Positions 2,500-44,939 of a stretch of 64,000 nt of DNA are shown here, one piece after another. Origin of the DNA: Escherichia coli (GTDB taxonomy: Bacteria; Pseudomonadota; Gammaproteobacteria; Enterobacterales; Enterobacteriaceae); assembly GCF_048403405.1 (NCBI RefSeq), contig NZ_CP183129.1; one strand, written 5' to 3'. The position numbers and the translations under genes were made by a program. The notes beneath the pieces were generated by a model. That model ran no database searches and was not told the DNA's origin. It was given only the letters and a program-made list of their open reading frames with translations. How positions within the stretch are numbered: position 1 is the first letter of the stretch; each line of letters opens with the position of its first letter.

Positions 2500-3564
2500 A
2501 TGAAAAACGCCACACGCTTAACTGACGATCAACGCTGGCAATCTGTCTTAGCACGCGACCCGAACGCCGACGGCGAATTCGTTTTCGCCGTGCGCACCAC
2601 GGGTATCTTTTGCCGTCCGTCTTGCCGCGCCAGACATGCCTTGCGGGAAAACGTTTCTTTCTATACGGATGCCAGCGAGGCGCTTGCCGCTGGCTTTCGC
2701 CCCTGCAAACGTTGTCAGCCAGATAAAGCCAATGCCCAGCAACATCGCCTTGATAAAATTACCCACGCCTGCCGACTGCTGGAACAGGAAACGCCTGTAA
2801 CGCTGGAAGCCTTAGCTGACCAGGTGGCGATGAGTCCGTTCCATTTGCATCGATTGTTTAAAGCGACTACCGGAATGACGCCGAAAGCCTGGCAACAGGC
2901 ATGGCGTGCTCGCCGTTTACGCGACTCGCTGGCGAAAGGGGAGAGCGTGACTACATCTATTCTTAACGCTGGATTCCCCGACAGCAGCAGTTACTACCGT
3001 AAAGCCGACGAAACGTTGGGCATGACGGCTAAACAGTTTCGTCACGGAGGTGAAAATCTGGCTGTGCGTTATGCGCTGGCTGATTGTGAACTGGGCCGTT
3101 GCCTGGTGGCTGAAAGCGAGCGGGGGATTTGCGCGATATTGCTGGGCGATGATGACGCGACATTAATCAGCGAGTTGCAGCAGATGTTTCCCGCTGCCGA
3201 CAACGCGCCTGCCGATTTGACGTTTCAACAACATGTGCGTGACGTGATCGCCAGCCTCAATCAACGCGATACGCCGCTGACGTTACCGCTGGATATTCGC
3301 GGCACTGCTTTTCAGCAACAAGTCTGGCAGGCACTGCGCACGATACCTTGCGGTGAAACCGTCAGTTATCAGCAACTGGCTAACGCCATCGGCAAACCGA
3401 AAGCGGTACGGGCCGTTGCCAGCGCCTGTGCCGCCAACAAGCTGGCTATCGTAATACCCTGTCATCGAGTGGTCCGTGGTGATGGCACACTTTCAGGTTA
3501 CCGCTGGGGCGTGTCGCGTAAAGCGCAACTGCTGCGCCGCGAAGCTGAGAATGAGGAGAGGTAA
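2500..3564 (+). CDS. ada: Bifunctional transcriptional activator / O6-methylguanine-DNA methyltransferase Ada
   Basis: 354 aa; N-terminal Cys cluster (CRPSCRARH...CKRCQPD), AraC-type HTH, C-terminal PCHRVV active-site motif. Confidence 0.95.
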   Translation: MKNATRLTDDQRWQSVLARDPNADGEFVFAVRTTGIFCRPSCRARHALRENVSFYTDASEALAAGFRPCKRCQPDKANAQQHRLDKITHACRLLEQETPVTLEALADQVAMSPFHLHRLFKATTGMTPKAWQQAWRARRLRDSLAKGESVTTSILNAGFPDSSSYYRKADETLGMTAKQFRHGGENLAVRYALADCELGRCLVAESERGICAILLGDDDATLISELQQMFPAADNAPADLTFQQHVRDVIASLNQRDTPLTLPLDIRGTAFQQQVWQALRTIPCGETVSYQQLANAIGKPKAVRAVASACAANKLAIVIPCHRVVRGDGTLSGYRWGVSRKAQLLRREAENEER

Positions 3565-5933: not shown

Positions 5934-6138
5934 TATTTCGACGCTGACCTGGCGGACTGCTGCTGCCAGGTCAATATTCTAAAAATCCCTTCGTTTCTAA
6001 TAACCCTATAATTAATCAACGAAATTATAATGTTTCTAAAAATAGAATATAATTTATAAACATTATTTAAATGTTGTTACTTAAGTGTTACCGTTGATGC
6101 CGCGCAAATCTCACCTGCAATAAAGCGACTAAAAGTAA

Positions 6139-21981: not shown

Positions 21982-24573
21982 ATGCATCAATCTGGTTCTG
22001 TTTCTCTTTGTCGTTCCGCAATATCTGTTCTGGTGGCTACAGCGTTATATTCACCCATAGCATTGGCATCAACAGTTGAGTATGGTGAGACAGTTGATGG
22101 TGTTGTCCTGGAAAAAGATATCCAGCTGGTTTATGGGACCGCCAATAATACGAAAATCAATCCTGGCGGAGAACAGCATATTAAAGAATTTGGTATAAGT
22201 AGTAATACTGAAATTAACGGCGGGTATCAGTACATTGAAATGAATGGCACCGCAGAATACTCAATATTAAATGATGGTTATCAAATTGTTCAAATGGGTG
22301 GTGCGGCAAACCAGACTACCCTCAATAATGGTGTGTTACAGGTTTATGGCGCAGCGAATGAACCTACGATTAAAGGCGGGCGCTTAATTATTGAAAAAGA
22401 TGGGATTACCGTCTTTGCCGCTATCGAAAAGGGAGGATTACTGGAGGTTAAAGAGGGGGGATTAGCATTTGCGGTAGATCAGAAAGCCGGCGGTGCGATT
22501 AAAACAACCACCCGGGCCATGGAGGTATTCGGAACAAACCGTCTCGGTCAGTTCGATATCAAGGATGGTATTGCTAATAATATGCTGTTGGAAAACGGCG
22601 GAAGTTTGCGAGTTGAAGAAAATGACTTCGCTTATAATACCACTGTGGATAGTGGCGGCTTACTGGAGGTTATGGATGGCGGGACTGCAACTGGCGTTGA
22701 TAAAAAAGCAGGCGGAAAATTAATTGTCTCAACGAATGCGCTGGAAGTGAGTGGTACAAACAGTAAAGGCCAATTTAGTATAAAAGATGGTGTGTCAAAA
22801 AATTATGAACTGGATGATGGTTCCGGGCTCATTGTTATGGAGGACACGCAGGCCATTGATACTATCCTTGATGAGCATGCCACTATGCAATCGCTGGGAA
22901 AGGATACTGGTACGAGAGTGCAGGCAAATGCGGTATATGATCTCGGTCGATCAGATCAGAATGGAAGTATCACGTATTCCTCAAAAGCCATCTCTGAAAA
23001 TATGGTTATCAACAATGGCCGCGCTAACGTCTGGGCTGGCACAATGGTTAACGTTTCAGTCAGAGGGAATGATGGCATTCTTGAGGTCATGAAGCCGCAA
23101 ATAAATTATGCGCCCGCAATGTTGGTGGGTAAGGTAGTGGTTTCTGATAGCGCTTCTTTTAGAACGCATGGTGCCGTGGATACCAGCAAAGCGGATGTTT
23201 CGCTCGAAAATAGCGCATGGACCATCATTGCCGATATCACTACGACGAACCAAAACACTCGCCTCAACTTAGCCAACCTTGCGATGTCTGGCGCAAATGT
23301 GATTATGATGGCTGAGCCAGTGACTCGTTCATCTGTGACGGCAAGTGCGGAAAATTTCATTACGTTGACCACCAATACCCTGTCGGGAAATGGCAATTTT
23401 TATATGCGTACCGATATGGCTAATCATCAGAGCGATCAGCTCAACGTCACCGGTCAGGCAACAGGTGATTTCAAAATATTCGTGACGGACACCGGTGCCA
23501 GCCCGGCAGCAGGAGATAGCCTTACACTGGTAACAACGGGCGGCGGTGATGCTGCATTTACGTTGGGCAATGCCGGAGGCGTTGTTGATATCGGTACGTA
23601 TGAATATACCTTGCTGGATAATGGCAACCATAGCTGGAGCCTCGCAGAGAATCGCGCGCAAATTACCCCTTCAACCACTGATGTGCTGAACATGGCAGCA
23701 GCACAACCGCTGGTATTTGATGCAGAACTGGACACCGTGCGTGAGCGTCTTGGTAGCGTAAAAGGCGTTAGTTACGATACGGCGATGTGGAGTTCGGCAA
23801 TTAACACCCGCAACAACGTGACCACTGATGCGGGAGCTGGCTTTGAGCAAACATTGACGGGCCTGACGCTCGGTATCGATAGCCGTTTCTCCCGTGAAGA
23901 AAGCAGCACAATTCGCGGCTTGTTCTTTGGTTACTCTCATTCTGATATTGGTTTTGATCGCGGCGGCAAAGGTAATATCGATAGCTACACCCTGGGGGCT
24001 TATGCCGGTTGGGAGCATCAGAACGGTGCCTATGTTGATGGAGTGGTGAAAGTTGACCGTTTTGCCAACACCATCCATGGCAAGATGAGTAATGGAGCAA
24101 CAGCGTTTGGCGATTACAATAGTAACGGCGCGGGTGCTCATGTCGAGAGCGGGTTCCGTTGGGTTGACGGATTGTGGAGTGTTAGACCCTATCTGGCCTT
24201 TACCGGCTTTACCACAGATGGTCAGGACTACACGTTATCAAATGGCATGCGCGCGGATGTGGGAAATACCCGGATATTACGCGCTGAAGCGGGAACGGCG
24301 GTAAGCTATCACATGGACCTGCAAAACGGTACGACGTTGGAACCCTGGCTGAAAGCCGCCGTGCGTCAGGAATACGCCGATTCTAACCAGGTGAAAGTTA
24401 ATGACGATGGCAAATTTAATAATGATGTGGCTGGAACCCGTGGCGTTTATCAGGCTGGGATAAGGTCATCGTTTACCCCGACGTTAAGCGGTCATTTGTC
24501 AGTCAGTTATGGCAATGGCGCAGGGGTAGAATCGCCGTGGAATACTCAGGCGGGTGTGGTCTGGACGTTCTGA
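21982..24573 (+). CDS. yejO: AIDA-I-type autotransporter YejO, intact
   Basis: 863 aa; signal peptide, repetitive G-rich passenger region, C-terminal beta-barrel ending ...QAGVVWTF. From memory this gene is IS5-disrupted in K-12. Confidence 0.8.
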   Translation: MHQSGSVSLCRSAISVLVATALYSPIALASTVEYGETVDGVVLEKDIQLVYGTANNTKINPGGEQHIKEFGISSNTEINGGYQYIEMNGTAEYSILNDGYQIVQMGGAANQTTLNNGVLQVYGAANEPTIKGGRLIIEKDGITVFAAIEKGGLLEVKEGGLAFAVDQKAGGAIKTTTRAMEVFGTNRLGQFDIKDGIANNMLLENGGSLRVEENDFAYNTTVDSGGLLEVMDGGTATGVDKKAGGKLIVSTNALEVSGTNSKGQFSIKDGVSKNYELDDGSGLIVMEDTQAIDTILDEHATMQSLGKDTGTRVQANAVYDLGRSDQNGSITYSSKAISENMVINNGRANVWAGTMVNVSVRGNDGILEVMKPQINYAPAMLVGKVVVSDSASFRTHGAVDTSKADVSLENSAWTIIADITTTNQNTRLNLANLAMSGANVIMMAEPVTRSSVTASAENFITLTTNTLSGNGNFYMRTDMANHQSDQLNVTGQATGDFKIFVTDTGASPAAGDSLTLVTTGGGDAAFTLGNAGGVVDIGTYEYTLLDNGNHSWSLAENRAQITPSTTDVLNMAAAQPLVFDAELDTVRERLGSVKGVSYDTAMWSSAINTRNNVTTDAGAGFEQTLTGLTLGIDSRFSREESSTIRGLFFGYSHSDIGFDRGGKGNIDSYTLGAYAGWEHQNGAYVDGVVKVDRFANTIHGKMSNGATAFGDYNSNGAGAHVESGFRWVDGLWSVRPYLAFTGFTTDGQDYTLSNGMRADVGNTRILRAEAGTAVSYHMDLQNGTTLEPWLKAAVRQEYADSNQVKVNDDGKFNNDVAGTRGVYQAGIRSSFTPTLSGHLSVSYGNGAGVESPWNTQAGVVWTF

Positions 24574-31201: not shown

Positions 31202-32392
31202 GTGACCACCCGACAGCATTCGTCGTTTGCTATTGTTTTTATCCTTGGCCTGCTGGCCATGTTGATGCCGCTGTCGATTGATATGTATCTGCCCGCGCTA
31301 CCGGTAATTTCAGCGCAGTTTGGCGTACCGGCAGGCAGTACGCAGATGACCCTCAGTACTTATATTCTGGGCTTTGCGTTGGGGCAGTTAATCTACGGGC
31401 CGATGGCAGACAGCTTCGGGCGTAAGCCGGTGGTTCTTGGCGGTACGCTGGTGTTTGCCGCCGCCGCGGTGGCGTGTGCGTTGGCAAACACCATCGATCA
31501 GCTGATTGTGATGCGTTTCTTCCACGGGCTGGCTGCGGCTGCGGCCAGCGTGGTCATTAATGCCCTGATGCGCGATATTTACCCGAAAGAAGAGTTCTCG
31601 CGGATGATGTCGTTTGTCATGCTGGTGACCACTATTGCACCGTTGATGGCACCGATTGTCGGCGGTTGGGTGCTGGTGTGGCTGAGCTGGCATTACATCT
31701 TCTGGATCCTGGCATTAGCGGCGATTCTGGCTTCGGCAATGATTTTCTTCCTGATTAAAGAAACGTTGCCGCCAGAGCGTCGTCAGCCATTTCACATTCG
31801 TACCACTATTGGTAACTTTGCGGCGCTGTTCCGTCATAAGCGTGTCCTGAGTTATATGCTTGCCAGTGGTTTCAGCTTTGCCGGGATGTTCTCGTTCTTA
31901 AGCGCCGGACCGTTTGTCTACATTGAAATTAACCACGTCGCGCCGGAAAACTTTGGTTATTACTTTGCGCTAAACATTGTTTTCCTGTTCGTGATGACTA
32001 TCTTTAACAGCCGCTTCGTCCGCCGAATTGGCGCGTTAAATATGTTCCGCTCGGGGTTGTGGATACAGTTTATTATGGCGGCGTGGATGGTCATCAGTGC
32101 GCTGCTGGGGCTGGGATTCTGGTCGCTGGTGGTTGGCGTTGCGGCGTTTGTGGGCTGCGTGTCGATGGTGTCATCTAATGCGATGGCGGTCATTCTTGAT
32201 GAGTTTCCCCATATGGCGGGAACGGCATCTTCGCTGGCAGGAACCTTCCGTTTCGGCATAGGGGCAATTGTTGGCGCATTACTTTCTCTTGCGACCTTTA
32301 ACTCTGCATGGCCGATGATTTGGTCAATTGCATTCTGCGCAACCAGCTCCATTCTCTTCTGTCTGTACGCCAGTCGGCCGAAAAAACGGTGA
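31202..32392 (+). CDS. bcr: MFS efflux transporter Bcr (bicyclomycin/multidrug)
   Basis: 396 aa, 12-TM MFS; GTG start. Confidence 0.9.
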
Positions 32393-32724
32393 TCTATTGC
32401 ACAACGAGGAAGCTAAAAGGCTTCCTTTGTTGATGCATGTCAACCACAAATCCATCATTCCCCCGATATATGTTTATTTTATGTAAAATCAATTTATGTA
32501 AAAAGTCACATCATTGTAGTTAAAAAGGTTGAGTTAGATCGCAGAAACGGGTACATATAGCCCCGCAAACGTGACCACGCCCGCAGATATTATTTAAATC
32601 AGAGCCATAGAGGCCACGCTGGCGAGGCATCAATCTTTACGATCTGTATAAAGACGGATTGTTGATGATGTGTTAAAATTGATGTAAATAAATTGTGAAG
32701 TAAATGTGCTTCCGGGGAAAATAA

Positions 32725-33069
32725 GTGACTTCATTACAACTCTCAATCGTCCATCGACTGCCGCAGAACTATCGCTGGTCTGCTGGTTTCGCAGGTTCGA
32801 AGGTTGAACCGATTCCGCAAAATGGACCGTGCGGTGACAACAGCCTGGTGGCGCTTAAATTGCTTAGCCCGGATGGTGATAATGCATGGTCGGTGATGTA
32901 CAAACTCAGCCAGGCGTTAAGCGACATCGAAGTTCCATGTTCGGTACTGGAGTGTGAAGGTGAGCCGTGCCTGTTTGTAAATCGCCAGGACGAGTTTGCT
33001 GCAACATGCCGATTGAAAAATTTTGGTGTGGCAATTGCCGAACCCTTCTCAAACTACAATCCTTTTTAA
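32725..33069 (+). CDS. yejG: Uncharacterized protein YejG
   Basis: 114 aa full-length match; GTG start. Confidence 0.8.
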
Positions 33070-33072
33070 GCG

Positions 33073-34662
33073 TCAGCTCAACGCCAGTAGCTGACGCGTA
33101 TACTCCTGCTGCGGTGCGGCAAACACGCGCGCGCACGGTCCTTGTTCCACTACTTCCCCTTGTCGCAGTACGATAACCTGATGACATAACGCGCGGACAA
33201 CGTGCAAATCGTGACTGATAAACAAATAGGCCAGTTGATGCTTTTGTTGCAATGATTTCAATAGCGTCAATATTTGCGCCTGTACCGTTTTGTCGAGCGA
33301 TGATGTTGGTTCATCAAGAATGATCAGCGAGGGCTTAAGAATTAACGCCCTGGCAATCGCAATACGTTGCCGCTGACCACCAGAGAACTCCGCCGGATAA
33401 CGGTGGCGTGTTTCAGGATCTAATCCCACTTCATGCATCACGGCTATCACTTGTTGTTCGCGTTGTGCGGCAGAAAGCGTCGGCTGGTGAACCCGTAAGC
33501 CTTCCTCAATAATCTGCAAAACGTTGAGTCGTGGGTTGAGCGAGGAGTTTGGATCCTGAAATACCACCTGAATGCGATGACGAATAGGTAACAGCTGGCG
33601 ACGATTTAAATTTTGCAGTGGCTGACCGTCAAAGATAATGCTGCCCTGAGAGTTAATCAGTCGCAGCAGCGCCAGTCCCGTCGTGCTTTTCCCGGAACCT
33701 GACTCGCCTACTAAACCCAGTGTTTCACCCGCTCGTAGCGTAAAACTGATGTTTTTCACCACCACATTATGATCCACAATGCGCTTCAAAATCCCTTTGC
33801 GAATGGGGAAGGCAACCTGAAGCTGTTCAACATCCAGCAACGTTGAGGCAGGTTCTGGCAATGGTACCGGGTCGCCTGACGGTTCACTGTTGAGTAGCTT
33901 TTGTGTGTAAGGATGAGTGGGTGAGGCAAATAGCGTAGCGGCGTTATTTTGCTCGACACAGCGACCGTTTTGCATTACCGCCACGCGATGGGCCAGTTTT
34001 CTGACAATGCTGAGGTTATGAGTAATAAACAGCATACCCATATTCAGCTCGCCTTGCAGTTCGCGCAACAGCTGTAAAATTTGCGCCTGAACAGAGACGT
34101 CCAGTGCGGTGGTTGGTTCATCGGCAATTAATAATTCAGGTCGCGTTAACAGCGCCATCGCAATCATCACCCGCTGGCGTTCGCCGCCGGAGAGCTGATG
34201 CGGATAATCTGTCAGCCGTTTTGCCGCCTGGCGGATACCGACGCGATCAAGGCAGTTAAGAATTTCGCCACGAGCCGCTTCCCGACGCATCCCGCGGTGG
34301 AGTGAAAGCACTTCATAAAGCTGTTTTTCCAGGGTATGCAATGGATTTAATGACACCATCGGCTCCTGAAAAATCATGGCGATCTTATTACCGCGTACAC
34401 CGCGCAACGTTTGATCGCTGGCATGAAGCAGCGATTCGCCATGAAAACGAATATCGCCGGAGAGATATTCAACCGGCGGGGAAGGGAGCAGGCGTAAAAT
34501 TGACAGCGCGGTAACGCTTTTGCCTGAACCTGACTCACCCACCAGCGCCAGCGTTTCGCCAGCCTCAATCTGAAGTGAAACATCATTGACTACTGTACGT
34601 ACGGTTTGCTGATGGCGAAAACCCACCGACAAATTTTCAATCGCTAACAGAGTTTGCGTCAT
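33073..34662 (-). CDS. yejF: ABC transporter ATPase YejF (two ATP-binding domains), microcin C / peptide uptake
   Basis: 529 aa from the internal ATG ([13 protein letters not shown]...); two Walker A motifs (GESGSGKS twice). Confidence 0.9.
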
Positions 34663-44717: not shown

Positions 44718-44939
44718 AGGAGTCACGTCTTAGTAACGATTAATTAACAATGACAGTGTAAAGTTATATGACAGCAATTGAAATTGGTCTGGATTGTTAA
44801 TGCGATGAAGTGTGAGGGCGATCAATCAACGAGTGAATATTGCGGGCGTAAGGTGTTCAGGAAGCGCAAAATAGAAGATTGGTATAATAAATTAAAAAAG
44901 GGACAGCCTGAGCTATCCCTTTTCTGCATGCGGCTGAAG

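Follow-up and report, generated by a model that had tools for sequence, protein, structure and literature searches.

The bcr-yejG intergenic region of Escherichia coli: tandem yejG promoters, two ArcA operators and the bcr terminator

Results of our analysis indicate that the gap between the bcr and yejG genes of Escherichia coli is, with little doubt, the regulatory region of yejG together with the end of the bcr transcription unit, and that the tandem promoters it contains are repressed by ArcA. This organisation has already been published for K-12. The short direct repeats that first drew attention to the gap are ArcA-P recognition repeats, and their two clusters are the two published ArcA sites. 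While the original prediction singled the gap out as a stretch accounted for neither by a gene nor by a terminator, most of it is covered by the bcr terminator, two promoters, and two ArcA operators. RefSeq places no annotated feature within the bcr-yejG gap; as this case shows, genome-scale regulatory maps in the literature can fully account for a gap without such annotation.

The window, i.e., the whole 64-kb stretch of DNA that was analysed, represents the E. coli chromosome around rsuA-bcr-yejG-yejF. On its plus strand, bcr ends at position 32392 and yejG starts with a GTG codon at position 32725, so the gap extends from 32393 to 32724 (332 bp). Of 5426 complete E. coli genomes, 5425 have this gap, which belongs to the core genome. 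The corresponding gap of K-12 MG1655 is of equal length and differs from that of the strain studied here at five bases (32453, 32593, 32620, 32689, and 32702). Published coordinates were converted to window coordinates by subtracting the U00096.2 coordinate from 2,308,984, a relation derived from published site sequences and gene coordinates. In addition, 80 orthologous loci were fetched, and 28 species of Enterobacteriaceae, spanning Escherichia, Salmonella, Citrobacter, Klebsiella, Kluyvera, Kosakonia, Enterobacter, Leclercia, Mangrovibacter, and others, were aligned. Two blocks of the gap, 32470-32565 and 32653-32724, are conserved in these 28 species with an identity of 0.83-0.95, and two stretches, 32443-32469 and 32566-32650, are variable. 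Little or no variation is seen among the 28 species in the TGT core of any repeat, in either -10 element, or in the ribosome-binding site. The description of the gap as very AT-rich is accurate for the regions 32440-32529 (GC content of 0.20-0.28) and 32650-32709 (0.28) and does not apply to the centre (32530-32619), in which GC pairs make up 53-55%.

The earlier statement that no confident ORF is present in the gap agrees with the comparative data: five short ORFs touch the gap, and each of them is intact in only 1-4 of the 28 related species. Small proteins encoded in the gap were rejected as candidates, since all five ORFs are broken in most relatives. The product of yejG itself matches the Pfam family YejG (PF13989, E = 5.8e-51). 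The predicted ribosome-binding site of yejG, GGGGAA at 32714-32719 (plus strand), precedes the GTG start codon at 32725-32727, and both the GGGG and the GTG are conserved in the alignment. At the other end of the gene, yejG (plus strand) ends at 33069 and the convergent yejF (minus strand) ends at 33073, which leaves 3 bp between them and no space for a terminator. The yejF-yejG pair was found among the pairs of overlapping transcripts named excludons in a study of 2025; neither this mention nor one of yejG in a paper on autotrophy relates to the bcr-yejG gap.

The gap had been expected to hold the yejG promoter, and it holds at least two, P1 and P2, located about 120 bp apart, as indicated by primer extension and, for 32686 and 32697, by 5'-RACE-seq. 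Two sigma70 ChIP events were separated by Chung et al. (2013), who also confirmed two yejG transcription start sites (TSSs) by primer extension, at 2,276,299 (32685, P1) and 2,276,419 (32565, P2), with the ChIP event for P2 at 2,276,432. The 5'-RACE-seq starts of P1, for which Kim et al. (2012) printed the upstream 51-mers, are at 2276298 (38 reads), corresponding to 32686, and at 2276287 (58 reads), corresponding to 32697; the start of P2 is not among the RACE-seq rows listed in the accessible part of that source. Promoter P1 (32651-32697, plus strand) comprises a weak -35 element, AAGACG (32651-32656), an extended -10 element, TGtTAAAAT (32671-32679), a TSS at A32686, and a second start at G32697; the 28 species show little or no variation at its TGTGTTA and at T32679. 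Promoter P2 (32522-32565, plus strand) comprises an UP-element-like A-tract, AAAAAGG (32522-32528), a -35 element, TTGAGT (32529-32534), a 17-bp spacer, a -10 element, TACATA (32552-32557), and a TSS at about G32565. With an identity of 0.90-0.95 among the 28 species, it is the most conserved part of the gap. Both P1 and P2 have the elements of sigma70 promoters, properly spaced upstream of mapped starts.

The inter-promoter spacer (32566-32650, plus strand), which forms the 5' part of the P2 leader, is GC-richer and is conserved neither in sequence nor in exact length. Its conservation of 0.44-0.66 is the lowest in the gap, and the distances between P2 and P1 across loci are 66-67, 100, or 112-127 bp. 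The 17-bp spacer within P2 contains a GATC sequence (a Dam site) at 32537-32540, and the conservation of this spacer (0.90-0.95) exceeds the needs of a sigma70 promoter. A peak obtained by SELEX with the RpoH holoenzyme has been reported at 2276452, which corresponds to 32532. A scan for strict promoter and terminator consensus sequences missed the mapped promoters as well as the bcr terminator and matched only a minus-strand TTGAGA-17-TATTTT (32746-32718) and a site inside yejG; the former starts within the first yejG codons and points back into the gap, and no published TSS supports it.

Contrary to the claim that the gap contains no recognisable terminator, an intrinsic terminator of bcr is present at 32408-32431 (plus strand). 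It is made up of the hairpin GGAAGCU-AAAA-GGCUUCC (32408-32425) followed by the T-tract TTTGTT (32426-32431), and an extended stem of A/U pairs encloses it at 32398-32437. The predicted RNA fold of the region 32385-32445 has an energy of -24 kcal/mol (z = -5.07), and none of 200 shuffled sequences folded as well. A GC hairpin with a T-tract is found in the same place in 21 other genera or species with different stem sequences, e.g., GGGGGCG/CGCCCCC, GGGAGC/GCTCCC, and AGAGCGC/GCGCTCT, which represent compensatory changes. A stable GC-rich stem and a U-tract located downstream of the bcr stop codon are the features of an intrinsic terminator. As in other Rho-independent terminators, the 7-bp GC-rich hairpin with its loop of 4 nt and the TTTGTT lie right after the stop codon, and the stem covaries; the difference is that the bcr terminator escapes a simple consensus scan.

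Two ArcA-P sites can be recognised in the gap. The operator over P1, named yejG1, occupies 32659-32702 (plus strand), which corresponds to positions -26 to +18 of P1, and consists of four direct repeats, TGTTGA (32660), TGTTAA (32671), TGTAAA (32683), and TGTGAA (32694), spaced by 11, 12, and 11 bp. It contains the second of the originally quoted strings, ttgatgtaaataaattgtgaagtaaatgtg, which we located at 32679-32708. The upstream site, named yejG2, occupies 32470-32500 (plus strand) and consists of the repeats DR1, TGTTTA (32471-32476), and DR2, TGTAAA (32482-32487), and of a weak third repeat. This site holds the first copy and a part of the second copy of the repeated 11-mer TTTATGTAAAA, from which the description of the gap as repeat-containing originated. 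We found the 11-mer in exactly two copies in the 64-kb window, both strands considered, at 32478-32488 and 32493-32503, i.e., 15 bp apart, where 0.07 would be expected by chance, and none of 100 shuffles gave at least two copies. The repeat itself is real, and its reported position (about 32473-32500) differs by a few bases from the one found here. The related sequence AATTGATGTAAA represents a third copy, at 32677-32688.

The search for ArcA boxes was conducted with a matrix constructed of 114 published boxes, from which those of yejG were left out, on both strands of the window (about 128,000 positions). The three matches in the gap, with scores of 20.7 bits (32682-32699), 18.7 bits (32659-32676), and 18.0 bits (32470-32487), take ranks 3-5. 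Ranks 1 and 2 belong to the known yeiQ and mqo boxes, both of which are in the training set, and rank 6, the next match from outside this set, scores 14.7 bits; the median of the training boxes is 15.9 bits. The sites in the gap have at least two TGTTA-like direct repeats about 11 bp apart and score like known boxes. The TGTTT and TGTAAA of the upstream site are invariant across the 28 species, and the cores TGTGTTA, TGTRAA, and TGTGAA of the P1 operator are invariant or at least 90% conserved in the same species, with all four repeats kept; the ArcA repeats are conserved in the orthologous promoters. In 65 of 76 loci, a constant 81 bp separates the upstream ArcA site from the -10 element of P2. 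Two of the base differences between the strain studied here and K-12, at 32689 and 32702, fall in or beside the P1 operator, and the matrix score remains high. We also considered that the two ArcA sites might be looped together or held in helical phase. This was rejected: there is no phase constraint, as the P2-to-P1 distance in related loci spreads continuously over 117-123 bp, with outliers of 66-67, 100, and 127 bp.

Published data place ArcA at both sites. In K-12, Park et al. (2013) detected ArcA ChIP-seq/chip peaks yejG1 and yejG2. They assigned to the former the site TTGTTGATGATGTGTTAAAATTGATGTAAACAAATTGTGAAGTG (2276282-2276325), with four direct repeats, an enrichment of 8.2-8.5 fold, and a box of 18.8 bits, located at -26 to +18, and to the latter the three-repeat site ATGTTTATTTTATGTAAAATCAATTTATGTA (2276484-2276514) of 17.6 bits. 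In the same strain, the level of yejG mRNA was 11.9-fold higher in an anaerobic arcA mutant. Federowicz (2014) reported ArcA peaks at 2275985-2276585 and 2276039-2276443 of the K-12 genome, with the effect on yejG called 'Repression', and three 15-mer motifs in the gap, two of which are in yejG1 and one upstream, at 2276498-2276512. Sigma70 occupancy at yejG was 1461 under aerobic and 56 under anaerobic conditions (Myers et al. 2013), and a supplementary table appears to give a 4-fold expression ratio. The Salmonella yejG gene (STM2220) is arcA-dependent, and its ArcA motif, GTCAATGATGTGTTA, is the orthologous site of yejG1.

The gap resembles other multi-repeat ArcA-P operators, such as those of icdA, mqo, nuoA, and fumA (Park et al. 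2013), in the presence of TGTTA-like direct repeats about 11 bp apart, and in the location of more than two such repeats over the -10 element and TSS of an anaerobically repressed sigma70 promoter. Indeed, yejG itself was catalogued in the same work with a four-repeat site and a three-repeat site. Nothing essential differs between these operators and those of yejG, although DR2 and DR3 of the latter are 12 bp apart and not 11. In contrast to most ArcA targets, the product of yejG has no known role in carbon oxidation. The data place yejG under strong redox control.

Under anaerobiosis, when the quinone pool becomes reduced, ArcB phosphorylates ArcA, and ArcA-P binds to direct repeats as dimers and higher oligomers. 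At yejG, ArcA-P occupies the four phased repeats at -26 to +18 of P1, a binding that others have shown in K-12. The position of this operator over the extended -10 element and the +1 site of P1 suggests that its occupation probably excludes sigma70 RNA polymerase. Through its position at -95 to -65 relative to P2, the upstream site probably blocks the activation of this promoter: it overlaps a CRP-like site near -62.5 and abuts the A-tract/upstream-element region of this promoter, as judged from the sequence. In air, both P1 and P2 would fire, and yejG would be made.

Several other readings of the gap were weighed against repression by ArcA. In the original prediction, the region was proposed to include curved or H-NS-bound DNA. 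Such DNA in the AT-rich tracts would silence or shape the yejG promoter, and the repeats would be a by-product of AT-richness. The GC content does fall to 0.20-0.28 in two stretches of 60-90 bp, and such AT-rich promoter DNA can bind H-NS. However, the exact 11-mer repeat is more frequent than expected by chance, and the AT-rich stretches are the most conserved in the gap, base for base, across genera, which is not what a constraint on composition only would predict. ArcA matrix scores of 18-21 bits were obtained in these stretches, which also coincide with ArcA ChIP peaks. Two published tables contain no H-NS flag for this region: in the table of constitutive promoters (Shimada 2014), the neighbouring spacers are marked 'HNS', and the yejG<bcr spacer is left blank, while Table S6 of Myers (2013) shows only Fis enrichment at this spacer, not H-NS. 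Moreover, yejG is well expressed aerobically. Taken with the match of the repeats to an ArcA-P operator, these data make the proposal very improbable. When short AT-rich direct repeats are found beside an enterobacterial promoter, the ArcA direct-repeat model is worth testing before curvature or H-NS binding.

A reading that adds FNR to ArcA concerns the 5' end of the gap, where a box matching the FNR consensus, TTGATgcatGTCAA, is located at 32430-32443, with 9 of 10 bases matching TTGAT-N4-ATCAA, so that by its motif it is a predicted FNR site. A third promoter, FNR-dependent or FNR-repressed, could lie here, and the region would then integrate the signals of FNR and ArcA. Of 78 related loci, 41 carry a perfect copy and 65 a copy with at most one mismatch, and the box keeps a fixed distance of 41-42 bp from the upstream ArcA site, while the intervening bases vary. 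A sigma70 promoter, TTGATG-17-TATCAT, that uses the left half of the box as its -35 element, with the -10 element at 32453-32458, has also been predicted (Shimada 2014). On the other hand, the box is listed in Table S6 of Myers (2013) as predicted (PatSer 14.14), is not under an FNR ChIP-seq peak in anaerobic K-12, and overlaps a Fis ChIP-seq signal; because of this negative published occupancy, we do not include it in the FNR regulon. There is also no mapped TSS near 32465-32480, the predicted -10 element, TATCAT in K-12, is weakened to CATCAT in the strain studied here and is poorly conserved, and the sequence offers no good -10 element at a class II distance from the box. We consider the existence of such a third promoter to be quite unlikely. 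In being listed with a good motif and in being enriched in Fis, the box is similar to the 'silent' predicted FNR sites of Myers et al. (2013), which have no ChIP signal and are often under nucleoid proteins. It differs from them in that many genera have kept it at consensus quality and with a constant spacing to the ArcA site, which a non-functional chance motif would not show. Being conserved but reportedly unoccupied, the FNR box lends itself well to asking why good FNR motifs can be silent. A second FNR-like match, at 32679-32692, was rejected: it is not conserved as an FNR box and represents repeat 3 of the ArcA operator.

The gap could also encode a separate small RNA (sRNA), which would be transcribed from P2 with its 3' end upstream of P1 or close to it; as an Hfq-binding RNA, it would function in trans or serve as a leader with a regulatory role. 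This reading draws on several reports. Raghavan et al. 2011 (Genome Res 21:1487) reportedly listed a novel sRNA in the yejG-bcr spacer, Bilusic (2014) described an Hfq-enriched interval over the yejG-bcr RNA, named 5' UTR-yejG, and an overlapping transcript was seen in a tiling-array study. P2 gives a leader of 160 nt, and the leaders of 25 species fold slightly better than their mononucleotide shuffles (mean z = -1.1). Yet no terminator-like hairpin with a U-tract was found between P2 and P1 in E. coli or in any of 24 other species, and the transcribed stretch 32566-32650 is the least conserved of the gap. The fold of the E. coli leader is not significant when compared with dinucleotide shuffles (z = -0.49). 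The strand of the yejG-bcr RNA follows solely from the name given to it by Bilusic et al., no RNA gene is annotated there by RefSeq in K-12 or in the closest genome, and there is no match to an Rfam family: a search of 31900-33300 at E values of up to 10 returned two chance-level matches, to a fragment of a human lncRNA and to a CRISPR repeat model. The lack of a terminator between P2 and P1, the unconserved spacer, and the lack of an Rfam match do not agree with the definition of a gene for an Hfq-dependent sRNA, and for this reason we do not classify the yejG-bcr RNA as the product of such a gene. A separate sRNA appears unlikely, and the reported yejG-bcr RNA is most likely the P2 leader.

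A structured leader or attenuator was considered as well and rejected, given the z value of -0.49 in E. coli and the fact that the species mean of -1.1 was obtained with mononucleotide shuffles, a control that favours the finding of structure. The conserved T-tract near +74 of the P2 leader has no hairpin in front of it. It lies about 40-50 bp ahead of the P1 start and more probably serves P1 as upstream-element DNA.

Overlapping the end of the upstream ArcA site is a candidate CRP-like 22-mer (32492-32513), with the core TATGT-aaaaag-TCACA at 32495-32510 and the centre at 32502.5, i.e., at about -62.5 from P2. It contains the second copy of TTTATGTAAAA. The TGTAAA of this copy, at 32497, is 15 bp and not 11 bp away from the previous repeat, and the in-phase third repeat of the upstream ArcA site has only 1.4 bits (Park et al. 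2013). Therefore, the second copy is better explained by the CRP-like site, or by nothing. The 22-mer has two mismatches to TGTGA-N6-TCACA, and the number of such matches in the window (20, as compared with 25.9 expected) is at the level of chance; a CRP site assigned by the pattern alone was rejected on this ground. There is almost no variation in its right half, GTCACA, whereas the left half varies, and in 6 of the 28 species the site reads TGTGT-N6-TCACA. Genomic SELEX of CRP listed yejG as a new target, without coordinates, and in the literature we found neither a CRP footprint at this site nor a crp-dependent expression of yejG. We retain the 22-mer as a candidate and do not classify it as a CRP site. 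The arrangement is reminiscent of lac-type tandem-promoter regions with a class I CRP site (near -61.5), as a single gene is served by two sigma70 promoters, about 120 bp from each other, and the CRP-like 22-mer lies about 62 bp upstream of the P2 start, beside an A-tract. However, as compared with lac-type class I regions, the match in E. coli yejG is at the level of chance, and its position depends on the TSS of P2, known within about 1 nt. The bcr stop codon lies within another CRP-like sequence with two mismatches, GGTGATCTATTGCACA (32388-32403, plus strand), which is not conserved in other genera.

Repression by ArcA does not explain why the P2 spacer and the FNR box are conserved. The FNR box is kept in most Enterobacteriaceae but is unbound by FNR in the K-12 ChIP-seq data, the P2 spacer with its GATC is about 90-95% identical across genera, and the leader is Hfq-enriched; therefore, a further, condition-specific regulator is possible. 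With low probability, the upstream module (32430-32565) may carry regulation beyond that covered by the published data sets. The regulator could be FNR acting under other conditions or another protein of the CRP/FNR family; alternatively, the leader could be a regulatory RNA.

Certain loci deviate from the common arrangement. In Enterobacter sp. ENT03 (locus L032), the gap is only 220 bp long (2781-3000), with 65 bp separating the -10 element of P2 from the start codon, and a P1/ArcA four-repeat module could not be recognised. In the E. asburiae group (loci L066 and L068-L070), the P2-P1 spacer is shortened to 66-67 bp. The upstream module seems therefore to be more indispensable than the P1 module.

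Other observations concern the remaining part of the window and the yejG gene. The published ArcA boxes of mqo and yeiQ are at 6074-6091 (plus strand, 20.9 bits) and 44733-44750 (minus strand, 21.0 bits), respectively; together with yejG, this makes three ArcA-controlled promoters in the 64-kb window. The next-best ArcA-like match, TGGTTATCAAATTGTTCA at 22275-22292 (plus strand, 14.7 bits), is absent from the accessible part of the published box list. An FNR-like match with one mismatch, at 22271-22284, overlaps it. Inside yejG, the sequence TGAACCGATTCC (32795-32806) resembles the consensus of the Cra half-palindrome, TGAATCGATTCA. A Cra ChIP-exo site in yejG is described as 'intragenic' by Kim et al., with no position printed in the text, and in another study yejG is placed under 'Cra repression'.
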